Shown: piece after piece, positions 1,997-56,047 of the stretch
How positions within the stretch are numbered: position 1 is the first letter of the stretch
Layout of the letters: each line of letters begins with the position of its first letter
Sequence record: OP870145.1
Length of the DNA: 64,000 bases
Reading direction: 5' to 3' (one strand)
From: Escherichia phage vB_Eco_F26
Program-made: the position numbers and the translations under genes
Notes under the pieces: model-generated
Seen by the model: the letters and a program-made list of their open reading frames with translations, nothing else
Told to the model about the DNA's origin: nothing
Databases searched by the model: none

Positions 1997-5137
<3,141 letters not shown>

Positions 5138-43570: not shown

Positions 43571-44072
43571 TTAAAAGTATTTTTTAAAACTCATCATAAC
43601 TTTATCATCAACATCATTATCAATCTGTGCAACAAGGTAAGATGACAGTTCTACTTCTTGTGGCGCGGATTGAACATTATCAGAATTAAGATATTCACGA
43701 ATCCAAGGATATGGGTGTTTAACCGGAGCATCGGTAATTGGGCATGGAAGACCACACTGTTTCATACGAGATACAGTTAAGTAATCAATAAAGCTCCACA
43801 TGCTATTTGTATTTAATCCAGGAACATCGCCATCTTTAAATAAATGAACTGCCCAATCTTTTTCTTGGCGGTTAACTTCCATGAAAATATCAACTGCTTC
43901 TTGTTCACACTCTTGAGCAATTTTAACCCATTCATCACCATCAGTACCGGATTGAAGCTGACGAATAATATATTGAGTGCCTTTAAGGTGAAGCTGCTCA
44001 TCACGTGCAATGAACTTCATAATCTTGGCATTACCTTCCATGATTTCCATGTTCTTATGGAAGTTAAAGGTA
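43571..44072 (-). CDS. nrdB: ribonucleotide reductase small subunit NrdB, exon 2 (boundary approximate)
   Basis: In-frame continuation ...FNFHKNMEIMEGNAKI matching R2 proteins; joins exon 1 across a ~598-nt intron. Confidence 0.8.
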
Positions 44073-44670
44073 CCGTTATGTTCGATTGAGCTCGCTAATT
44101 CTCAACCCGTTCTCTTATGAACTGCTACATATTACTATGCAGACCAGACTATATCACAATCCCAGAGGGATTCTCCCCATTTCGAGTCGCTTGACCCTAC
44201 GTCCGAAGACTAGTCGTTGAACCTTGCTTTGCAATTGTCGCCGTGCCATCGTTTATATGTTGATGGTGATAAATCTTTCTTATCACAATATGGACAATTC
44301 AATTGAATTCTATTTGGATTTAATTTACATCTGTCATTATGTTTTAGATAAAATCCAGGACCTTTACCAATGTGACCACAGAAATCACATGTGATTTCTT
44401 TTTGTGCAGGATGGGTCCCGTTCTTAACCATTTCTAATGTTTTTGCTGATGTTCTTTTCTTATGGTCTTCCATCAGAATCTTTAGGTAGGTCCGTTAGCA
44501 TCTATCCAAATTTTTCTATAGTTCAATTGTGCATCCTCTTAAAAGTATAATCATATTATACTAATTAAAGGTGCAAGCAAAACCTTGGCTGCTAGTTTTC
44601 CTATAAAGGACTTTCTAGCAATTAAAGGAGTTTTCGATAAACGTTACCGTTTAAAGGCGCATTTTACGCA
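44073..44670 (-). mobile_element. group I self-splicing intron in nrdB (boundaries approximate)
   Basis: In-frame stop right after FYVSFA; conserved group I elements (GACUAUA / UAGUC); contains I-TevIII remnant ORF; ~598 nt. Confidence 0.7.
44210..44473 (-). CDS. I-TevIII homing endonuclease remnant (zinc-finger domain only)
   Basis: 87 aa with two Cx2C..H..C zinc fingers and no HNH catalytic region; intron-encoded. Confidence 0.7.
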   Translation of the reverse strand: MEDHKKRTSAKTLEMVKNGTHPAQKEITCDFCGHIGKGPGFYLKHNDRCKLNPNRIQLNCPYCDKKDLSPSTYKRWHGDNCKARFND

Positions 44671-45341
44671 AAAGATACATAAAAACGAATAGCTTCTAAG
44701 GCATTAATAACGTGCAAACAGAGGTAAAGAGATTTCATTAAAGCACGTTTAGCTTCGGCTTCTTGTTTAATAGCTCGGTTTAAACGAAAGTCGGCATCAG
44801 GAGATTCTTTAGCTAGTTCTACAAATTCTTTAGCATTTTCCCATTCACGGGTTTTAGTCAGAACATCATCATAATAACGACCGATAGATTCAGCACGTTT
44901 CATAATAGCTTCATCTAATACAATCTCATCAAATACCTTTGACGGATCAGTATAAAGATTTCGCATGATATGAGTATATGACCGACTGTGAATAGTTTCA
45001 CTAAAAGTCCATGTAGCAACCCATGTATCAAGGCTTGGGTCTGAAAGCAATGGCATAAGTACAGCAGACGGCGCACGACCTTGAATACTATCAAGTAATG
45101 ATTGATACTTCAGATTATTAGTAAAAATATTTTGTTGATACTGAGGAAGCTTATTAAACTGTGCAGCATCCATCATTAAGTTAACTTCTTCGGGACGCCA
45201 GAAAAACGAGAGCGAACGTTCAATAAGTTCTTCAAATACTCGATGTCGTTGAATATCATAACGCGCAATTCCAAGACCAGACCCAAAAAACATAGGTTCT
45301 TTTAAAACATCGACCTGTTTAGTATTAAAAACTGTACTCAT
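44671..45341 (-). CDS. nrdB: ribonucleotide reductase small subunit NrdB, exon 1
   Basis: N-terminal R2 sequence ending ...ALEAIRFYVSF(A) followed by in-frame TAA at intron start. Confidence 0.8.
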
Positions 45342-46933
45342 TATTTTGTCCTGTAAACTAAATTTCCACAGTCCCAGATTCTTCTAAGACCATTTGCATA
45401 ACAATTTTCTACTTCAGTTATTGTATCATCATAATTTTTAAGCTTGTTTTTAAGCTTATGTTTCATATAGCTTGAGCGGTGAAATACCTCTCCTTTATCG
45501 ACGTACCAATAACATGGCTCAGAGATATGACTAAATTCCATGACAGAGTCATAAACATTTGATAATGTACTGCACCATCTTCGATTGCCATAAGATAGAC
45601 AATTAATTCCTTTTAATAATTTTGAGGCTCCTCCTACAACACAAATCCCTAATTTTGAACACATCCTTAAAAGTTCATCACCTGAGCTATATCTAGATTT
45701 ACCGATAGAAATAATTTGAACTAACTCATTATTGTAATAAAGTCCTTTATACGTATGAGCTCCTGAGCAAAATCCTTGAAGATGATTCTTATTAATAAAT
45801 TCTTTTGCCTCATCCTTATTAACAAAACGCGCTTTGCATTTTCGGGCTGGTATTCTTTCTGATAATCCTAATTTATGCTTTATAATGGATTTCCAGATCT
45901 CTCTTTTTGTATCATCAATCCATTCATTTTCGAAGATGTGAAGTAATTGAATTCCTTGTGCTTCACACATCTCTGTCTTCATCAAATGATAAGTTTCTTT
46001 AATTTTATCTGTTTCCTTTGACCCGCTAGAATGCCAATAAATTCCATCGTATTCTATAGCCAATTTTTTCTCAGGAATGTAAATATCTAATTCATACGGA
46101 GGAATAATTTTTCTAGTTTCTACGCAATCAAATCCTAGATCTAAAATGAATTGCTCTATAGAACTTTGAGTATAATGAACGTCAATTAGTCCTTTGGATG
46201 AAAGAGCTCTATAAGCCGTCATCCGAGAACAATTTGCTAATTGTTGTAGTTCTTCTATAGAAATTTTGTAATTGATTTTATCTAGTATATCATGATTAAT
46301 ATGACCGTTATTTTTAATAGATTTTCCTATAGATGAATATAACGATGCCTTATATTCTTCAGTCCAATTTAATTTAGTCTTCTTAGATTTTTCGCGAGAT
46401 TTTCGAGAATTCAGAATATCAACTGATTTACCGTTTTCTATAACTTTTCTCGCTTCTTTCACACTTTCTAATTGTGAATTATGCGTTACCCCATATCGTT
46501 TAATTAAAGTTTTTCTATTTTTATTTCTTGAAATTTTTTGATGAGTTGTTCCATATTTTTCTAAAGAATTTTTGCGTTGAAGTTCAGACAAATATTTTTT
46601 ATATTTTTCTTTTCCGCCAAAATTTGTATCACGGCTTTGAATTCTCTTATCCGCGAAAAATATCCCTGAGCAGGATTTACTACATGTTGCTGGAAATACA
46701 CGTTTCTTTGCTGTTTTCAGAGAAATGAAATTTCCACAAACTGCACATTTTAGATCGTTAATGTCAATGCCTTCCATAATTTGGAACACATTGAGCTTAA
46801 AATCTATTCCATCAGTTAGAAGAGCTTTATCTTCTTCTGTTAGTCTAGATTTAAGTTTTTCTTCTCCAAATGGAAGAAACTTTCCGTTTTTGTATATATT
46901 ATCAAACATAGCGTTATTCTTAGTTAACCACAT
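45341..46933 (-). CDS. large free-standing endonuclease-like protein (Zn ribbon + PD-(D/E)xK / Vsr-like core), possible Hef-type homing endonuclease
   Basis: 530 aa; N-terminal CAVCGN...CSKSC; repeated KYG(T/V)TH modules; HTH-like LANCSRMTAYRAL; core ELDIYIPEKKLAIEYDGIYWHSS; Cys-rich C-terminus; sits at the nrdA/nrdB intergenic locus. Confidence 0.55.
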   Translation of the reverse strand: MWLTKNNAMFDNIYKNGKFLPFGEEKLKSRLTEEDKALLTDGIDFKLNVFQIMEGIDINDLKCAVCGNFISLKTAKKRVFPATCSKSCSGIFFADKRIQSRDTNFGGKEKYKKYLSELQRKNSLEKYGTTHQKISRNKNRKTLIKRYGVTHNSQLESVKEARKVIENGKSVDILNSRKSREKSKKTKLNWTEEYKASLYSSIGKSIKNNGHINHDILDKINYKISIEELQQLANCSRMTAYRALSSKGLIDVHYTQSSIEQFILDLGFDCVETRKIIPPYELDIYIPEKKLAIEYDGIYWHSSGSKETDKIKETYHLMKTEMCEAQGIQLLHIFENEWIDDTKREIWKSIIKHKLGLSERIPARKCKARFVNKDEAKEFINKNHLQGFCSGAHTYKGLYYNNELVQIISIGKSRYSSGDELLRMCSKLGICVVGGASKLLKGINCLSYGNRRWCSTLSNVYDSVMEFSHISEPCYWYVDKGEVFHRSSYMKHKLKNKLKNYDDTITEVENCYANGLRRIWDCGNLVYRTK

Positions 46934-46949
46934 CCTTGTGGTAATTATA

Positions 46950-47939
46950 TCATAATTTACAGGATGAACAATCTTCAGCTTTTGGAGTTTCTATTTCATA
47001 ATCATCAGTGCCAGAACCATCGCGGGTATTATGATAATAGAAATTTTTTCCGCCAAAATACCAAAAATACAAAAGGTCATCAATCATTATTGACATTGGA
47101 ACCTTTCCTTTTGGAAAAATCTGCGGGTCATAGTATGTATTCGCTGAAGCTGATTGACATACCCATTTCAGCATAATAGCTACCTGCGTAAGATAAGGTT
47201 TATTACCTTTCTTAGCTAATTTCCATGTATAATCATAGAGGTCTATGTTATGCTCAATATTGGGCACGACTTGATTAAAGGAGCCCTCTTTTGATTCTTT
47301 AACAGAGACTGGTCCACGTGGAGGCTCGATACCGTTTGTACTGTTAGAAACTTGGGAAGATGACTCACATGGCATAAGTGCTGATAATGTGCTATTACGG
47401 ATGCCAAAGAGCTTAAGGTCTTCCCGCAGCGCCGACCAGTCACAAACGTATTTTGGAGCTGCGATTTGGTCAATCTTTTTATTGTACCAGTCGATAGGTA
47501 ATTCGCCTCGAGACCAACGAGTGTCTGAATAATATTCGCAAGGTCCTTTTTCTTTGGCGAGCTTAATGGATGCTTTAATGAGTCCATACTGTAATCTCTC
47601 AAATAGTTCATGTGTTAAATCGTTAGCATCTTCATAAGAAGCAAAGTTGCTTGCCAGCCAAGCTGCATAGTTAGTAACACCTACACCGAGGTTACGACGC
47701 TTTTTAGCTTTTTCTGCTTCAGGAACTGGATATCCTTGATAATCCAAAAGATTATCAAGAGCGCGAACTTGAACTTCTGCCAATTCATTAATTTTATCTT
47801 GGTCTTGCCAATCGAAGTTATCCAGTACGAAGGCAGAGAGAGTACAAAGCCCCACTTCTCCCTTGTTTTCAATAACTTTTATTGTAGTATACTCATCATC
47901 TTCGTAAAATTCATCTACAAATTCATAATCAATATTCAT
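46950..47939 (-). CDS. nrdA: ribonucleotide reductase large subunit NrdA, C-terminal piece
   Basis: 329 aa; aligns to class Ia R1 from ...GEVGLCTLSAF to C-terminal CxxC tail; own ATG overlapping the HNH stop. Confidence 0.8.
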   Translation of the reverse strand: MNIDYEFVDEFYEDDEYTTIKVIENKGEVGLCTLSAFVLDNFDWQDQDKINELAEVQVRALDNLLDYQGYPVPEAEKAKKRRNLGVGVTNYAAWLASNFASYEDANDLTHELFERLQYGLIKASIKLAKEKGPCEYYSDTRWSRGELPIDWYNKKIDQIAAPKYVCDWSALREDLKLFGIRNSTLSALMPCESSSQVSNSTNGIEPPRGPVSVKESKEGSFNQVVPNIEHNIDLYDYTWKLAKKGNKPYLTQVAIMLKWVCQSASANTYYDPQIFPKGKVPMSIMIDDLLYFWYFGGKNFYYHNTRDGSGTDDYEIETPKAEDCSSCKL

Positions 47940-48639
47940 TTAATTCTTCTACCTTTTTTCTAGTAATTCCTAAAGCTTTAGATGCTCGATGTATTGATTG
48001 ATATTCTATACCGTTTATTTTTACAGCAATTAAGTTATGGGGTTTTAATCCCTTTGGATGAGGTTTACTGACGAAAACTAAATTATCAAGCTCTGAAATC
48101 TTATCCAATTTCTTACACTTAAATCCTTTGTGATGCGCCCGTTTACCTTTACAAACGGCTGACATTGCAGATGAATTTAAATTATGCTCTTTACAAAATT
48201 CGTTAAGACCTCGATGAATTTCCTCATGACCATCCGGAAATGTAAACACCCAAGATGTTTGAAGTCGAGATTTAACTTCTGGAGACATAGGAATACCTTT
48301 GTTCCAAGCTGGTTTGCCTTTATTATTTTCAGATACAGAAATAGCCAATTTTCTTCTAAGCCACCCATGGCGTTTATTGGTGTTCTTTCGTTCAATATTA
48401 TCTTCAGAATAAACACACATCATATTAGCGGCAAATATCAATTTATGATTATCTGGATATATCTTTACTAATAATTGATGAGCTATGTAATGCTCTTCTG
48501 GCGTCAAATCTACCAGGTTTTCCTTTGTATCAGAACCACCAATACACAGAGGTATAATATGGTGTGATTCGGTATAGCAATCTAATTTTCTGTTCTTAGC
48601 TTTAGAAATAAGGTTATTGTAAATTTTAGAATAATCCAT
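47929..48639 (-). CDS. free-standing HNH homing endonuclease inserted within nrdA
   Basis: 236 aa; motif YTESHHIIPLCIGG..N..EHYIAH; own SD (GAGGAAAA); paralog of the two + strand HNH genes. Confidence 0.8.
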   Translation of the reverse strand: MDYSKIYNNLISKAKNRKLDCYTESHHIIPLCIGGSDTKENLVDLTPEEHYIAHQLLVKIYPDNHKLIFAANMMCVYSEDNIERKNTNKRHGWLRRKLAISVSENNKGKPAWNKGIPMSPEVKSRLQTSWVFTFPDGHEEIHRGLNEFCKEHNLNSSAMSAVCKGKRAHHKGFKCKKLDKISELDNLVFVSKPHPKGLKPHNLIAVKINGIEYQSIHRASKALGITRKKVEELNEY

Positions 48640-48684
48640 AACTTTTCCTCTTGTTATGGATTATTTATTAACGGTCTGTGTACT

Positions 48685-50118
48685 TTATTTGCTTTGAATT
48701 ATACCGCCAGGATTAGCTTCATAAAACTTAGCTACATCCGACTTCTTAATTTTGATTAAACGGGTTTGTTGGCTATTCACATCATTTGTTGGAATAGCAA
48801 TTTCACAGCACAAGTTACTCTGACGAATAGGTGCCTTTTCACGAATAAACGGAGTATAGTTATTCGTATTATCAATGAACTGCACATAAATCCTTGCTGT
48901 TCCTGATCGTTCAGTCATGAGCAATTCAAACAGTTCACGGGCTTTAATACGCTTTTTACGAATATTAGGGTCTTTTTCTGCGGCTTCGTATAATTCACGG
49001 AAACGGTCTTGGTCTTTAAAATAAGAATAATAAAGTTCGCCACCCATTTCATGCGGACTGAACAAAGTAATGTAATCGTTCTTTCCGAATCGTTCCATCA
49101 TCAAATCATTCAGCTGAACACCATAATCCATGTGACGAATGCGGTTTTCTTCTACGCCTTTGTTATTTTTCAAAACGAGAAGATTTTCAACTTCCAAATG
49201 CCAAATAGGATAATAAGCAGTAGCAGCGCCGCCACGAATTCCACCCTGTGAACATGATTTAACAGCAGTCTGAAAATGTTTCCAAAAAGGAATAACACCA
49301 GTATGGCGTACTTCACCCATGCCAATCTTAGAACCTTCGGCACGAATCATACCAACGTTAATACCAATTCCAGCGCGTTTAGAGATATATTCAACAATTG
49401 AAGCGGAAGCCTTATTGATAGACTTTAATGAATCACCTGCCTCAATAACAACACATGAACTAAACTGTCGAGTCGGAGTACGACAACCAGCCATAATAGG
49501 AGTTGGCAATGAAATCTGTCGAGTAGATACTGCTTCATAAAAACGAATAACATGTTTTAGTCTATCAACAGGTTCATCTTGATGCAATGCCATTCCAATA
49601 GTCATAAATGCAAACTGTGGGGTTTCATAAATTTGACCGGTGGTTTTATCTTTAACTAGATATTTTTCTTTTAATTGCATCGCCCCGGAATAAGTAAATT
49701 CCATATCCCGTTCGTGCTTAATTTTTGATTCTAAAAATGTAATTTCTTCTGCTGAATATTTTGACAATAATTCAGGGTCATATTTACCTTCATTTACACA
49801 GTAAGAAATATGGTCAATAAATGAACGCGGTTCATACTGCCCATAAACATGCTTACGAAGAGCGAACATTAAACAGCGTGCAGCTACATATTGATAATCA
49901 GGTTCTTCAACCGAAATAGAATTCGCAGCAGCCTTAATGACAATAGTCTGAATATCATCAGTTGTCATTCCATCACGGAGATAAGATTTAATATTTTCAT
50001 ATAATTCATAAGGATCTACTGATGTTCCCTCAGCTGCCCAAGATAAAACTTTAATAATTTTTTGTGGGTCAAAGCTCTGAGAAACACCACTACTTTTGAT
50101 AACATTAATTAATTGCAT
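48685..50118 (-). CDS. nrdA: ribonucleotide reductase large subunit NrdA, N-terminal piece
   Basis: 477 aa; class Ia R1 through active-site SNLCCEIAIPTNDVNS, then 28 non-homologous residues and a stop. Confidence 0.85.
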   Translation of the reverse strand: MQLINVIKSSGVSQSFDPQKIIKVLSWAAEGTSVDPYELYENIKSYLRDGMTTDDIQTIVIKAAANSISVEEPDYQYVAARCLMFALRKHVYGQYEPRSFIDHISYCVNEGKYDPELLSKYSAEEITFLESKIKHERDMEFTYSGAMQLKEKYLVKDKTTGQIYETPQFAFMTIGMALHQDEPVDRLKHVIRFYEAVSTRQISLPTPIMAGCRTPTRQFSSCVVIEAGDSLKSINKASASIVEYISKRAGIGINVGMIRAEGSKIGMGEVRHTGVIPFWKHFQTAVKSCSQGGIRGGAATAYYPIWHLEVENLLVLKNNKGVEENRIRHMDYGVQLNDLMMERFGKNDYITLFSPHEMGGELYYSYFKDQDRFRELYEAAEKDPNIRKKRIKARELFELLMTERSGTARIYVQFIDNTNNYTPFIREKAPIRQSNLCCEIAIPTNDVNSQQTRLIKIKKSDVAKFYEANPGGIIQSK

Positions 50119-50435
50119 AAGTCCTCAACTTGAAAATCGTCTTTAAACAATCGGTTAACTATATGAGCTATTATATCACCATGACACGGCTTTGGTTTAC
50201 ATGTGCATCCTAGCCTCATTCCACGTAAAGGCTCTAAATGTGCTTTAGTTATTTCTCCAGATTTAATTCGACGTATAAAATCTTTTTTGAATAATTCAAT
50301 GGCAGCCTCCCGGCTGCCAGCATCTTTACCGACGTAATTTCCCCAAAATGTACCGCGGTGAATATTAACATCAAAGTCGGATTTATATTTATTCACTACC
50401 CGGCATAGACGGCCCACGCTGGAATAATTCTTCAT
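50109..50435 (-). CDS. hypothetical protein (nrdA.1-like, Cys/His motif)
   Basis: 108 aa; [11 protein letters not shown] motif; between td and nrdA. Confidence 0.5.
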
Positions 50436-50652
50436 ATTGTTTTTCCGTTAAAACAGTAATATCGTAGTAACAGTCAGAAGAAGTTTTAACTGTGGAAATT
50501 TTATTATCAAAATACTCACGAGTCATTTTATGAGTATAGTATTTTTTACCATAAATGGTAATAGGCTGTTCTGGTCCTGGAACTTCTAACTCACTTGGGT
50601 TAGGAAGTGTAAAAAGAACAACGCCAGAAGTATCTTTAAATCGTAAAATCAT
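50389..50652 (-). CDS. hypothetical protein (nrdA.2-like)
   Basis: 87 aa ORF between td exon 2 and nrdA.1. Confidence 0.45.
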
Positions 50653-50960
50653 ATTGCCATTTTCCCTTTAATTGCTGGATGCGATTCATAATTTTCAAGG
50701 ATAAAATCTTTCGGTTTCATGTATTCAGTTAACCAGTAAAGCTGTGTTTCGGTGTCACAATTTCCAAACTCTATAGGCCAATCAATTTTAAGTTCACACA
50801 GTTCTTTAGGCTCACGACGTAAAATTTCTTTACATTGCTCAGTATGATTCATATAGATGTGAGTATTACCACCAGAAAATATCAAATCTCCTGGGATAAG
50901 ATTACACATCTTAGCTACAATATGAACTAGTGCAGCATATGATGCAATATTAAACGGTAG
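50649..50960 (-). CDS. td: thymidylate synthase, exon 2
   Basis: Begins [11 protein letters not shown]... immediately after intron 3'-terminal G; 103 aa + stop. Confidence 0.9.
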
Positions 50961-51976
50961 CATTATGTTCAGATAAGGTCGTTAATCTTACCCCGGAATT
51001 ATATCCAGCTACATGTCACCATGCAGAGCAGACTATATCTCCAACTTGTTAAAGCAAGTTGTCTATCGTTTCGAGTCACTTGACCCTACTCCCCAAAGGG
51101 ATAGTCGTTAGGCATTTATGTAGAACCAATTCCATTTATCAGATTTTACACGATAAGTAACTAATCCAGACGAAATTTTAAAATGTCTAGCTGCATCTGC
51201 TGCACAATCAAAAATAACCCCATCACATGAAATCTTTTTAATATTACTAGGCTTTTTACCTTTCATCTTTTCTGATATTTTAGATTTAGTTATGTCTGAA
51301 TGCTTATGATTAAAGAATGAATTATTTTCACCTGAACGATTTCTGCATTTACTGCAAGTATAAGCAGAAGTTTGTATGCGAACACCGCACTTACAAAACT
51401 TATGGGTTTCTGGATTCCAACGCCCGTTTTTACTTCCGGGTTTACTGTAAAGAGCTTTCCGACCATCAGGTCCAAGTTTAAGCATCTTAGCTTTAACAGT
51501 TTCAGAACGTTTCTTAATAATTTCTTCTTTTAATGGATGCGTAGAACATGTATCACCAAACGTTGCATCAGCAATATTGTATCCATTAATTTTAGAATTA
51601 AGCTCTTTAATCCAAAAATTTTCTCGTTCAATAATCAAATCTTTCTCATATGGAATTTCTTCCAAAATAGAACATTCAAACACATTACCATGTTTGTTAA
51701 AAGACCTCTGAAGTTTTATAGAAGAATGGCATCCTTTTTCTAAATCTTTAAAATGCCTCTTCCATCTCTTTTCAAAATCTTTAGCACTTCCTACATATAC
51801 TTTATTGTTTAAAGTATTTTTAATCTGATAAATTCCGCTTTTCATAAATACCTCTTTAAATATAGAAGTATTTATTAAAGGGCAGTCCTACAATTTAGCA
51901 CGGGATTGTCTACTAGAGAGGTTCCCCGTTTAGATAGATTACAAGTATAAGTCACCTTATACTCAGGCCTCAATTA
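50961..51976 (-). mobile_element. td group I self-splicing intron (1016 nt)
   Basis: 5' end UAAUUGAGGCCUGAGUAUAAGGUGACUUAUACUUG..., 3' end ...ACAUAAUG, recognisable as the T4 td intron; contains I-TevI ORF. Confidence 0.9.
51108..51845 (-). CDS. I-TevI GIY-YIG homing endonuclease (intron-encoded)
   Basis: 245 aa; GIY-YIG motif (SGIYQIKN...VYVGSAKDFEKRWKRH); zinc finger CKCG..CSKC; inside td intron. Confidence 0.9.
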   Translation of the reverse strand: MKSGIYQIKNTLNNKVYVGSAKDFEKRWKRHFKDLEKGCHSSIKLQRSFNKHGNVFECSILEEIPYEKDLIIERENFWIKELNSKINGYNIADATFGDTCSTHPLKEEIIKKRSETVKAKMLKLGPDGRKALYSKPGSKNGRWNPETHKFCKCGVRIQTSAYTCSKCRNRSGENNSFFNHKHSDITKSKISEKMKGKKPSNIKKISCDGVIFDCAADAARHFKISSGLVTYRVKSDKWNWFYINA

Positions 51977-52525
51977 ACCCAAGAAAACATCTACTGATCG
52001 TTGATACCACTGAAGGTCAAGGTATCCATTACGAACATTAAATTGATAAAACATATGACAAGGCGGTAATGCCATCTGCTTGAGTTCAGCTGGATTCCAT
52101 GCTGAAACGATTTGACGTCGATCAGTTGGTAATTTTTTAATACGATCAATAGTTTCAACTAATTGATCCACACCACCGAAATCACGCCATTGTTTACCGT
52201 ATATAGGACCAAGTTCACCACTATGGTATCCTAAATCTTTTGCTTGATTTTCGTAATTTTCATCCCAGACTGTTTTGCCTTGGATTAACGAATCATGCTG
52301 AATTAATCGTAAATCATTGACATTTGTGCTTCCTGATAAAAACCATATTAACTCAGAAATGCAAGCTTTCCAGGCGAGCTTTTTAGTTGTTACTGCAGGA
52401 AAACCTTTGGTTAAATCCCAACGCAATTTAGTACCGAACAAAGCAATTGTTCCTGTGCCTGTTCGGTCATCAGTTTCATAGCCATTTTCAAAAATGTCTT
52501 TAATTAAATCTTGGTATTGTTTCAT
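51977..52525 (-). CDS. td: thymidylate synthase, exon 1
   Basis: 183 aa N-terminal TS ending ...VDVFLG before intron; exon1+exon2 = 286 aa as T4 TS. Confidence 0.9.
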
Positions 52526-52566
52526 TTAGTACCTTATATAAATTATAATACATTTTATGAAGCTAA

Positions 52567-52914
52567 TTAATATGGTTTAGCATCAAATTTTCTCTCAATT
52601 TCAGGCGTGAAATATAATTCTTTACCGCGTTTGGAAAAACGACCAATAATATGATAATTATTCTCATCAAACGTGATATTACCAATATCCATAGCTTTCA
52701 ACCAAATATCGATATTTCTATCCAGCTTTATGTCAAAATTCCAATACGGAGAACTATTACCGAAAATACTGCAAGCGGATTCAGTGAAACAACTGCTATA
52801 AATCTTATCTTTGGGAACTACTAATTGATAGACGCCTTTAATAAACTGAGGACCCTGCCATTTTGGTTGTTTCGCGTCTTTTTCTAATAGAATAGGGTAA
52901 TAATTAAAATTCAT
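52567..52914 (-). CDS. hypothetical protein inserted between frd and td
   Basis: 115 aa ORF with no recognisable motifs; fills a 408-bp gap where T4 frd and td overlap. Confidence 0.5.
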   Translation of the reverse strand: MNFNYYPILLEKDAKQPKWQGPQFIKGVYQLVVPKDKIYSSCFTESACSIFGNSSPYWNFDIKLDRNIDIWLKAMDIGNITFDENNYHIIGRFSKRGKELYFTPEIERKFDAKPY

Positions 52915-52933
52915 ATTTCCGCCACGCGTTATT

Positions 52934-53760
<827 letters not shown>

Positions 53761-53770
53761 ATTATTTTCC

Positions 53771-54013
53771 TTAAACAGACTTTTTCACAATTTTCCAATC
53801 AGCTTTAAACTGTTCAACGTCAGAATGGTAAATCCAGAATCCTGCGCTTTCTCCGTCTTCATAAAGAGGGCATCCATCGCATTCATCTTCCCATCCCATA
53901 TCACGTAAAAGATGTTCAGCTTTTTCAACAAGTTCAGAATCTTTACCGATGATATTAAAATACCATTTACCTCTAACTTCTGAATCTTTGATGCTTTGGC
54001 GTTGTAATCTCAT
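53771..54013 (-). CDS. hypothetical protein (frd.2-like)
   Basis: 80 aa ORF. Confidence 0.5.
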   Translation of the reverse strand: MRLQRQSIKDSEVRGKWYFNIIGKDSELVEKAEHLLRDMGWEDECDGCPLYEDGESAGFWIYHSDVEQFKADWKIVKKSV

Positions 54014-54070
54014 TTTATTCTCCTTAGTTGATAGGGTAATAGTATCACACTACTACCCTGATGTAAACAA

Positions 54071-54373
54071 TTATTTTTGAATTTTATCGAGCCACTTACC
54101 AAGCTTAATCATTTCTTTAGTAGCCTTTTCCATACTTCTGAACTTAACCAATAGAGGATAGGTATCAACACCCATAACTAAACTGGTTACAAGACTGTGT
54201 TCACCCACAAGCCATAACGAATACGTTTGAATATCGAGCCCGTAATTTCTGTCTTTATGGACCCGTACACCCATCACTTCAAATTTCTCACTAGCTTTTT
54301 CTACCGCATCCAGGAAATCATCTTTAGTCATATTAGGCCTTAAAAGTTTTTCGCAAAAGTTCAATGATTTCAT
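54071..54373 (-). CDS. hypothetical protein
   Basis: 100 aa ORF. Confidence 0.45.
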   Translation of the reverse strand: MKSLNFCEKLLRPNMTKDDFLDAVEKASEKFEVMGVRVHKDRNYGLDIQTYSLWLVGEHSLVTSLVMGVDTYPLLVKFRSMEKATKEMIKLGKWLDKIQK

Positions 54374-54719
54374 CTACATTGTTTTCGTCAACAATGCAGT
54401 GAATTTTTGTTACGCCAGAAACTATACCTTCATTAGCGGATTGAGGCTTTTCTAAAGTTACCTCAGTAAAGTATTTGAATTCTTCAGAGTAAATCTCAAA
54501 ATACGTCTCAAGTGGGCCACCCGCCATGTATTCAGTGCCATCTTCCATAGTTACACGTACCACGCATTCACCAGCACAATCATCACTTTCCATTTCATCT
54601 ACAACAAAACTAGGTCCGTGCTTCTCTATTAAATTTAGCATCATTACATTGCAACGACACTCGTTAGCAAAGTCATTTTTAAATAAAGGGTTAATGATAT
54701 AAGTTTTTCCAACTTCCAT
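54333..54719 (-). CDS. hypothetical protein
   Basis: 128 aa ORF. Confidence 0.45.
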   Translation of the reverse strand: MEVGKTYIINPLFKNDFANECRCNVMMLNLIEKHGPSFVVDEMESDDCAGECVVRVTMEDGTEYMAGGPLETYFEIYSEEFKYFTEVTLEKPQSANEGIVSGVTKIHCIVDENNVDEIIELLRKTFKA

Positions 54720-54765
54720 TTTGATTTCCTCATTTTAACGGGGCTATCAAATAGCCCCTTGATAA

Positions 54766-54993
54766 TTATTGTTCAATCAGTCCCATGTAAAATTCTGCGT
54801 CTTCAGAATCCATGCCATCACAATATTCATTAGCCATAAAACGGGTGAGGTCTTCAAGAGGACCTTCAATAACGATTTGAATACTCCAAAACTTAGAATC
54901 TTGCACGCTTGTGATACTAAGTTCAGGATAACGATTACGAATAATTTCTTCAATATATTCAAAATCAACGATGTCAATATCAACTTTAGCCAT
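54766..54993 (-). CDS. hypothetical protein
   Basis: 75 aa from ATG 54993 with AAGAGGA SD. Confidence 0.45.
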
Positions 54994-55089
54994 ATTATTT
55001 TCCTCTTTAACTATCAGCAGTATTGCCGATAGTTGTATAGTACCATGGAAGGACAAGGATGTAAACCGTTTTGTGAAAAAATTTTTGAA

Positions 55090-55118
55090 ATAAAAAAGGG
55101 GACCTCTAGGGTCCCCAA
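55090..55118 (-). terminator. rho-independent terminator after gene 32
   Basis: GGGGACC-CTAGA-GGTCCCC hairpin followed by TTTTTATTTC on - strand. Confidence 0.7.
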
Positions 55119-55138
55119 TTAATTAGTAATATAATCTA

Positions 55139-56047
55139 TTAAAGGTCATTCAAAAGGTCATCCAGGTCCGTGTCATCAGCACTAGATGAACTGCCAGAGC
55201 TTGAGCTCATAAAATCATCTTCAGTTTTTGTATTGAAGTCATCAACATTGAATGCATCCAAATCATCAGCAACTTTATCAGCTTTCTTAGCAGCAGTCGC
55301 TGCGGCACCACCCATAGCAGCAGTTCCCATAACTTGACTGAACTTAGTGCTCAGTTCTTCAAACGATTTGAATTTATCTTTAGAAGTCATTTCAGAAAGG
55401 TCAACCATTTGTTCGAACAGTTCTTTCTGGAAAGATTCATCATCAATGTTTGGAATCGCAGATTGATTCAGGAATTTAGATTCATCGTAGTTACTAAATC
55501 CAGAAACTTGTTTAACTTTCAGTACAAAGTTAGCACCTTCCCACGGACAAGTTACATCAACCGGAGTTTCACCCATTTCAACATCAACCGCAATCATTGC
55601 ATTGATTTTATCCCAGATTTTCTTACCGAAACGGTATTTAAATACTTTACCTTCGTTTTCTGGAGCAGCCGGGTCTTTTACTACAAGAATGTTAGCCCAG
55701 TAAGAAGTTTTACGTTTAACAAGACTGTACTCTTTATTGTCAGTGTTGTACAGATCATTTTTACTGATGTATTGACATACTGGGCAAGAATCGTAATCAC
55801 CGTGGGTAGATGAACATGTTTCAATATACCATTTACCATTTTTCTTGAAACCGTGATTTACAAGAATTGCGAATGGTGCTTGTTCATCATTTTTAGACGG
55901 AAGAAAACGAATTACTGCTTGACCGTTACCCGCATTGTCGAGTTTCAGTTTCCACTCGCCTTTATCTTCAGAAGAAAAACCACCTTTATTTCCAGCCAGT
56001 TTAGCCATTTGTGCAGCGAGTTCAGCAGTAGATTTACGTTTAAACAT
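55139..56047 (-). CDS. 32: single-stranded DNA-binding protein gp32
   Basis: 302 aa; recognisable as T4 gp32 ([24 protein letters not shown]...), acidic Ser-rich C-terminus. Confidence 0.95.

Follow-up and report, generated by a model that had tools for sequence, protein, structure and literature searches.

The nrdA locus of Escherichia phage vB_Eco_F26 (sequence record OP870145.1), which codes for the large subunit of a class Ia ribonucleotide reductase (RNR), lies on the minus strand at positions 46950..50118 of the 64,000-nucleotide (nt) stretch of DNA analysed here, called the window below, to which all coordinates of this phage refer. The gene is present in two pieces, with a gene of the HNH homing endonuclease family between them, and all three open reading frames (ORFs) are on the minus strand. 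The upstream piece, nrdA-a (48685..50118), encodes 477 amino acids (aa) that take in the ATP-cone, the all-alpha domain and, of the barrel, the first half. Its stop codon is separated by a 45-nt spacer, containing a hairpin, from the ATG of the endonuclease gene (47929..48639), which is of the MobE type and specifies a protein of 236 aa that carries an HNH motif at its N-terminus and an I-HmuI NUMOD-like domain for DNA binding at its C-terminus. A GAGG Shine-Dalgarno sequence stands 8 nt upstream of this ATG, and the 3' end of the endonuclease gene shares 11 nt with the start (ATG) of the downstream piece, nrdA-b (46950..47939), whose 329 codons hold the second half of the barrel.

Between them, the pieces account for all of NrdA. 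Pfam finds the ATP-cone, Ribonuc_red_lgN and positions 1-221 of the barrel model in NrdA-a, and positions 219-523 of the barrel in NrdA-b. When the pieces were compared with the PDB using phmmer, residues 5-450 of NrdA-a matched residues 6-455 of Escherichia coli R1 (E 1e-159) and residues 24-323 of NrdA-b matched residues 454-751 (E 3e-92), so that the two tile R1 and no NrdA residue has been lost. Residues C222, N435, C437 and E439 of NrdA-a correspond to C225, N437, C439 and E441 of the E. coli protein; C32 of NrdA-b corresponds to C462 and Y301/Y302 to Y730/Y731, and the C-terminal cysteine pair is C324/C327. The split point is thus in the loop between the finger-loop residues C437/E439, which belong to NrdA-a, and the redox cysteine C32, which belongs to NrdA-b.

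An initial annotation of the window, made from its letters alone, had described three minus-strand ORFs with a 45-bp gap and a Shine-Dalgarno sequence proper to the HNH gene, and the ORF list and the sequence give the same coordinates. Its description of an nrdA that a free-standing HNH gene divides at the active-site region, with 28 foreign residues and a stop closing NrdA-a and no NrdA residue missing, agrees with the position of the catalytic cysteines on either side of the break, with a basic tail of 28 codons plus stop and with the alignment to R1. It also gave NrdA-b 26 foreign residues at its start; the foreign N-terminus is there, but its length is about 23, as homology resumes at residue 24 (ENKGEV, aligned with DENGEI).

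Borders of the inserted cassette

The alignment of the junctions to an intact nrdA, which the initial annotation had proposed as a way to define the insertion, was carried out with the gene of Tequatrovirus G8 for the phage itself, and with intact Mosigvirus genes (308Ecol101PP, SSE1) for carriers of that genus. The inserted cassette extends from 47823 to 48772 on the minus strand and consists of 950 nt. It takes the place of 46 nt of the T-even nrdA in its intact form and lengthens the locus by 904 nt net. Its left junction is sharp and falls between AATAG and CCAACAA. On the right side, identity with the intact gene picks up at GATAAC.

The right-hand end of the cassette is a recoded homologous region (47823..47870, minus strand) covering NrdA-b residues 24-39, ENKGEVGLCTLSAFVL, which stands where the intact gene has SPDAEIGLCTLSAFVL. 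The displaced NrdA residues are encoded anew in it, and its counterpart in nrdA of the intact type is AATAGTCCTGATGCGGAAATTGGCTTGTGCACGTTATCTGCATTTGTG. Synonymous changes relative to the intact gene are found in nine of the ten codons from G30 to L39 (G-L-C-T-L-S-A-F-V-L). The point of return to host-type sequence varies between carriers: it lies directly after TGC in IME537, after CTG in vB_Eco_F26 and further downstream in e11/2. A right-hand crossover that shifts in this way is what the repair of a double-strand break with variable co-conversion tracts would be expected to leave. Among the carriers (L002, L005-L012) the recoded GLCTLSAFVL segment is also unusually polymorphic at synonymous sites, including a TCT/AGC switch for serine, and the adjacent tails are near-invariant.

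Two tails shared with Aeromonas phage Aeh1

The remainder of the cassette adds a tail to each NrdA piece. NrdA-a ends in a basic tail (48685..48771, minus strand) of 28 codons, QQTRLIKIKKSDVAKFYEANPGGIIQSK, plus a stop codon, with a pI of 10.0. NrdA-b begins with an acidic tail (47871..47939, minus strand), residues 1-23, MNIDYEFVDEFYEDDEYTTIKVI, with a pI of 4.05, of which the first 11 nt overlap the HNH gene. The comparison with G8 indicates that intact sister nrdA genes have neither tail.

A 'genes-in-pieces' reductase, whose gene order is nrdA-a, then mobE, then nrdA-b, was reportedly described in phage Aeh1 by Friedrich et al. in PNAS in 2007. In the genome of this phage (NC_005260) nrdA-A encodes 473 aa, the spacer is 46 nt long, mobE encodes 237 aa and overlaps nrdA-B (323 aa) by 14 nt. 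The dimensions in vB_Eco_F26 are very close, with pieces of 477, 236 and 329 aa, a spacer of 45 nt and an overlap of 11 nt. The insertion is in the same loop in both phages, between the equivalents of E. coli C439/E441 and C462, and both have a basic NrdA-a tail and an acidic NrdA-b tail each homologous to its counterpart in the other phage, as well as a hairpin over the start of the endonuclease gene. The endonuclease is 44-48% identical to Aeh1 MobE (44% over 233 aligned residues). When Aeh1 MobE was searched by tblastn against 50,697 phage records, no close full-length relatives turned up other than the T-even genes located inside nrdA (E 1e-45 to 1e-50).

The tails are conserved as protein. 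In the a-tail 8 of 17 residues are identical to the Aeh1 NrdA-a tail, five of these eight being specified by different codons; for the b-tail the figures are 15 of 32 residues, six of them by different codons. Stretch RLIKIKKSDVAKF aligns with MLFKVKKSEVDKF of Aeh1, and YEDDEYTTIKV with YEDEEYTTVEI. The local-alignment score of the tails is ten standard deviations from that of shuffled sequences (z = 10), and none of 500 shuffles reaches it. Since identical residues often differ in codons, the constraint acts on the protein. The computed pI values of the Aeh1 tails, 9.9 for NrdA-a and 4.05 for NrdA-b, are also close to those found here; Crona et al. (2011) give 10.4 and 3.8 (PMC3045599).

The Aeh1 enzyme has been characterised biochemically. 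There, the break that mobE makes in nrdA falls between two neighbouring strands of the active-site barrel. Each piece is translated on its own, and the holoenzyme, (aa/ab)2b2, contains two separate chains and has normal specific activity (PMC3045599). The tails are essential and act where the aa/ab heterodimers dimerise (PMC3045599). Expression of MobE is kept down by RNA structure (PMC2988022), and the locus is without a self-splicing intron (PMC3045599; PMC3653736).

The two systems differ in several respects. The hosts of the cassette are Tequatrovirus and Mosigvirus coliphages here and a Cinqassovirus in the case of Aeh1. The hairpins are unlike in sequence, with the AUG buried in vB_Eco_F26 and the Shine-Dalgarno sequence in Aeh1, and the distal parts of the tails are not alike. 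Function of the split enzyme has been demonstrated for Aeh1, whereas vB_Eco_F26 is known from its sequence. Conversely, the coliphage cassette is polymorphic in its population, and intact sister phages define its borders, its recoded target and its co-conversion tracts, which Aeh1 did not permit.

The endonuclease gene and its expression signals

The HNH protein matches PHROG 655, 'homing endonuclease' (1e-58), and the Pfam family PF22083, I-HmuI NUMOD-like (9e-10, 38.4 bits, above the cutoff); its match to the Pfam HNH model (0.0026, 18.3 bits) falls below the cutoff of 21.4. Residues H26, H27, N41, H50 and H54 are unchanged across the alleles and in Aeh1. Two alleles of about 89% nucleotide identity were found, with differences mainly in residues 117-190. 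Every allele is intact, and the pN/pS ratio between alleles is 0.17-0.24, indicating that the endonuclease is under purifying selection. The gene is a mosaic (47929..48639 compared with L006, L009 and L011): the first ~300 nt and the last ~60 nt are near-identical, and codons ~117-190, covering the linker and the DNA-binding part, differ by 7-21 nt per 60 between alleles. This suggests recombination between two variants.

The spacer and the beginning of the endonuclease gene can form a 13-bp RNA hairpin (48630..48665, minus strand), AAUAAUCCAUAAC-(AAGAGGAAAA)-GUUAUGGAUUAUU, with the Shine-Dalgarno sequence of the HNH gene in the loop and its AUG in the 3' arm. The predicted fold has a dG of -14.9 kcal/mol (z -3.4), and one of 200 shuffled sequences was as stable; for the analogous hairpin over the endonuclease start in Aeh1, dG is -25.9 and z is -4.6. 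The spacer is 98-100% conserved in the other nine split genomes compared, too uniform for covariation. Scans of the region for sigma-70 promoters and terminators gave background levels only. The exact T4 late promoter (TATAAATA) is absent from the cassette, in which only AATAAATA is present.

Distribution and mobility of the cassette

Many Tequatrovirus (T4-like) phages match the region of the locus at 95-99% identity. Among 826 phage records with a match, 32 have at least 80% query cover and the same three-gene arrangement, and the remainder have a continuous nrdA. Among the carriers are e11/2, HY01, fPS-90, FL12 and Manna, whose depositors label two nrdA genes around a homing endonuclease. 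Carriers occur in both Tequatrovirus and Mosigvirus, the latter represented by AV111 and ZQ3. In all ten split genomes compared (vB_Eco_F26 and nine others, from the two genera) both nrdA halves are full-length and free of frameshifts.

In the comparison with PTE-Eco05, the tails, the spacer and the endonuclease gene are 99-100% identical and the flanking nrdA halves 77-79%, which implies a recent transfer between diverged nrdA backgrounds and genera. From these alignments, the near-identical cassette within diverged flanks and the varying right-hand crossover, together with the recoded target, point indirectly to recent homing.

A continuous fusion of the two tails was sought in phage isolates and none was found. 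The sole apparent match was UFV-AREG1 (NC_031030.2, L015), in which a 223-nt block containing an N (2588..2810) joins a junction of the intact type (…NSPDAEIGLC…LDYQG) to a repeated end of nrdA-a of the split type. This block looks like an assembly chimera, and the sequenced stock may have held both intact and split alleles. For the tblastn search with the b-tail, the acidic part was lost to low-complexity masking; a homologue search with the 72-aa N-terminus of NrdA-b returned one fragment only (P0001).

A proposed split reductase assembled from two polypeptides

We consider it highly probable that the segment from 47823 to 48772 is a mobile cassette built around a MobE-type HNH gene, that it homed into the nrdA of a T4-like coliphage, and that the two resulting polypeptides assemble into an active reductase without splicing. 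The segment has the anatomy of such a cassette, it is homologous to the cassette of Aeh1, and it bears the signatures of horizontal spread. The insertion supplies the upstream half with an in-frame basic tail of 28 codons and a stop, followed by a 45-nt spacer, whose predicted hairpin buries the start codon of the endonuclease, and by the endonuclease gene itself. The downstream half receives a new ATG, an acidic tail of 23 codons and, with synonymous recoding, a copy of the NrdA residues that were displaced. By analogy with Aeh1, NrdA-a and NrdA-b would associate as an aa/ab heterodimer with a composite active site, and the heterodimers would dimerise via tails of opposite charge and, with NrdB2 bound, form an active class Ia reductase, neither RNA nor protein splicing taking part. 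The anatomy further suggests that the recoded region probably abolishes the target of the endonuclease it accompanies and so confers self-immunity, and that the hairpin probably holds translation of the endonuclease low. The initial annotation had already compared the locus with the genes-in-pieces nrdA of Aeh1 and had envisaged an enzyme rebuilt from two polypeptides; the homology of the whole cassette, both tails included, to the mobE cassette of Aeh1 bears out the comparison and argues for the rebuilding.

Several points weigh against this interpretation. The activity of the split enzyme would have to be extrapolated from an Aeh1 homologue with an NrdA of only 50-59% identity. On normal hosts T4 can do without nrdA, so selection for its function could be weak. 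Both the activity of the endonuclease and its target site are predictions from sequence. As the cassette holds no exact late promoter, the regulatory parallel with Aeh1 comes down to the hairpin. An AlphaFold2 model of NrdA-b alone leaves the acidic tail disordered (pLDDT < 50) and gives no structure for it; the model is uninformative on how the tails pack.

The alternative that fares best, and that we nevertheless regard as improbable, is that the insertion killed nrdA and that the halves are decaying pseudogene fragments, the phage relying on the NrdAB of its host or on its own anaerobic NrdDG. T4 nrdA mutants are viable, and a recent spread of the cassette leaves little time for visible decay. 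Against this stand the intact halves in all ten split genomes from two genera, the retention of all catalytic and radical-transfer residues, the conservation of the tails with Aeh1 across a deep divergence, and the normal specific activity of the split enzyme of Aeh1.

A group I intron carrying the HNH ORF, comparable to td/I-TevI and nrdB/I-TevIII, is a still weaker candidate and in our view very unlikely. In that case splicing would make the nrdA mRNA continuous again, and the two ORFs would be illusory, seen only when the unspliced DNA is read. Group I introns are indeed found in td and nrdB of T-even phages, both of which are in the window, and some such introns encode HNH enzymes. Rfam gave no intron match (at E <= 1 over 44000..56000, and at the gathering score over the whole window), but it equally missed the known td and nrdB introns, so the scans are uninformative about an intron in nrdA. 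What speaks against the intron, indirectly, is the composition of the insert. Outside the HNH ORF it has only ~130 nt and ~60 nt, which are read throughout in the frame of the exons as tails, and the conservation of these flanks with Aeh1 is in amino acids, not in nucleotides. The stop codon, the new ATG and the recoded residues would serve no purpose in an intron. The homologous pieces of Aeh1, moreover, are translated independently and contain no self-splicing intron (PMC3045599; PMC3653736).

Protein trans-splicing by a very short or degenerate split intein, which would join NrdA-a to NrdA-b, has less credit again and seems hardly tenable. A split intein was raised by Crona et al. as one possible origin of the tails (PMC3045599). 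In their opposite charges the tails are like the halves of a split intein, and genuine split inteins do fracture nrdA at C439, 14-16 residues upstream, with many metagenomic representatives beginning with ...ILVHN followed by the cysteine; these halves served as a positive control for the junction motif. The junction residues in vB_Eco_F26 do not fit, however: the a-tail runs from Q, and not C, S or A, to K, and the b-tail begins with M, ends in ...ENK instead of HN and is followed by G in place of C, S or T. At 28 and 23 residues the tails are far below the size of a HINT fold, Pfam detects no intein domain in the ORFs, and the Aeh1 holoenzyme holds two separate chains. The undetected splicing event that the initial annotation had left as an alternative thus finds no support, the tails being conserved as protein and free of intein junction residues, and the Aeh1 pieces being translated separately (PMC3045599).

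An assembly or sequencing artefact, either a chimera of two phages, as UFV-AREG1 seems to be at its nrdA locus, or a false stop codon at 48685, the error that the initial annotation had named as grounds for a continuous nrdA, can practically be dismissed, since ~32 records, sequenced independently by many laboratories in many countries, show the same clean three-gene order, and since the interruption, far from a point mutation, is a 950-nt block that contains a complete ORF under selection.

Other splits and insertions in the same loop

NrdA-b was compared by phmmer with 1.84 billion representatives, and the loop was extracted from NLCxE(I/V) to the cysteine equivalent to C462. In most sequences this loop has 20 residues. 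Of ~110 distant representatives, ~10 have an in-frame insertion of 61-95 aa; others are C-terminal halves that begin either with the C-half of a split intein at C439 or with tails of their own at the loop. The split-intein C-halves (…VYDITV…NFFANxILVHN, then C) lie 14-16 residues upstream of the MobE site and were found in P0002, P0010, P0016, P0058, P0070, P0104, P0109, P0120 and P0136. In P0005 and P0013 a split-intein half is combined with a long insertion in the downstream loop.

Splits at the same loop were also found in metagenomic sequences. In L097 (420..3762) nrdA is divided by an ORF of 281 aa with NUMOD3 repeats, and in L096 (1905..4853) by a 146-aa ORF of unknown function; in L100-L103 (L100, 2..1361) the halves have no gene between them and are joined as TAA-G-ATG. 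All of these halves have tails of their own. The a-tail of L097, YTVAVKKERTREF, resembles the stretch RLIKIKKSDVAKF of vB_Eco_F26.

For the continuous insertion of P0034, AlphaFold2 predicts with confidence (pLDDT ~87-95) a mini-domain of the order strand-helix-strand-helix-strand, and the strand-helix pattern of the a-tail together with the final strand of the b-tail resembles it. It is conceivable, although we would give it clearly less than even chances, that the two tails are not arbitrary charged peptides but the halves of a small folded domain of the NrdA loop, which may be continuous or split whichever nuclease does the splitting. In pairwise comparisons of tails with insertions, only the pair of vB_Eco_F26 and P0038 reached z = 4 (1 of 500 shuffles), the other pairs being at chance level. 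Hidden Markov model (HMM) tests against shuffled sequences gave p values of ~0.05-0.09 for the tails of vB_Eco_F26 and L097, and no signal for those of Aeh1, L096 and L100. Homology of the tails to the continuous loop insertions is therefore not established by either the pairwise or the HMM tests. Charge complementarity was considered as a general rule and rejected: it is true of vB_Eco_F26 and Aeh1 and fails in the other metagenomic splits. If the tails were such halves, they would amount to a portable clasp by which the cassette rescues the split, and the continuous forms would represent its ancestor or else the scars of endonuclease loss.

Related systems and neighbouring insertions

The enzyme of vB_Eco_F26 belongs to the same broad HNH family as T4 mobE and is found in the same neighbourhood of the RNR operon (Wilson & Edgell 2009, PMC2790892). 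T4 mobE, in contrast, is intergenic between nrdA and nrdB, targets nrdB and interrupts no gene, and its similarity to the enzyme described here is confined to the N-terminal HNH part. A scan of IMG/VR with a MobE alignment found only the Aeh1 copy inside nrdA; most relatives were just after an intact nrdA, in the position of T4 mobE.

A parallel in design is the T4 topoisomerase locus gene 39/mobA/gene 60, where an HNH Mob cassette also splits the gene of an essential enzyme (bioRxiv 10.1101/2022.08.31.505936). The mobA cassette adds C- and N-terminal extensions, deletes a few tens of nucleotides of the target and substitutes a recoded homologous region, as does the cassette in vB_Eco_F26. It differs in its target gene, in a translational bypass element of 50 nt and in tails without sequence similarity to those of nrdA.

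The 'fractured' nrdA genes with split inteins (Dassa et al. 2009, PMC2677866) likewise consist of two genes with the break close to the active site, and an endonuclease gene frequently lies between them. Their break is at C439 with canonical ...HN/C junctions (P0002, P0010, P0016 and others), and the halves are joined by trans-splicing, whereas vB_Eco_F26 is without these motifs. The td/I-TevI and nrdB/I-TevIII systems also place homing endonuclease genes in genes of nucleotide metabolism and use hairpins at the start site as translational control (PMC2988022). These introns need RNA self-splicing, whereas the flanks in nrdA of vB_Eco_F26 are translated tails.

The T4-type td and nrdB introns mentioned by the initial annotation were both located in the window. 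The td gene (50649..52525, minus strand) consists of exons 51974..52525 and 50649..50963 with a gap of ~1 kb, which holds a 245-aa ORF (51108..51845) of the GIY-YIG type similar to I-TevI (PHROG 314, 6e-51). The nrdB gene (43571..45341, minus strand) has exons 44664..45341 and 43571..44050; its gap of 613 nt contains only a short zinc-finger-like ORF remnant and is consistent with the T4 nrdB intron with a defunct I-TevIII.

Between nrdA-b and nrdB, in the position of T4 mobE, lies an ORF of 530 aa (45341..46933, minus strand) that matches PHROG 3339, 'homing endonuclease' (6e-152), and, at 2e-4 and below the cutoff, Vsr/REase_MTES_1575. This is probably the endonuclease of the Hef type that reportedly stands in for mobE in certain T-even phages. 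With this endonuclease-like ORF beside the nrdA cassette, the RNR operon has four endonuclease-related insertions in ~9 kb. On the other side, a 108-aa ORF with a DUF4326 domain (50109..50435, minus strand; PF14216, 5.5e-22), called NrdA.1 in related records, overlaps the start of nrdA-a by 10 nt.

Conclusions

The Aeh1 type of system is already known, and its T-even instances are annotated in ~30 GenBank records. A split nrdA in T-even phages has been mentioned in passing, as unpublished (bioRxiv 10.1101/2022.08.31.505936, 2022); our literature search found no paper dealing with the cassette of the coliphages, where its borders lie, how its target is recoded or how it has spread between genera. 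The present analysis extends the genes-in-pieces reductase of Aeh1 from one Aeromonas phage to ordinary T4-like coliphages, in which genetics, co-infection homing assays and biochemistry are straightforward and for which near-identical sister phages with an intact nrdA provide natural before-and-after controls. The tails appear as a conserved, inherited part of the cassette and not as DNA that Aeh1 acquired by chance, and the cassette carries a recoded copy of what would be its target and is now spreading between phage genera. Annotators of such genomes should expect two nrdA genes flanking a homing endonuclease gene, and should not take them for pseudogenes.

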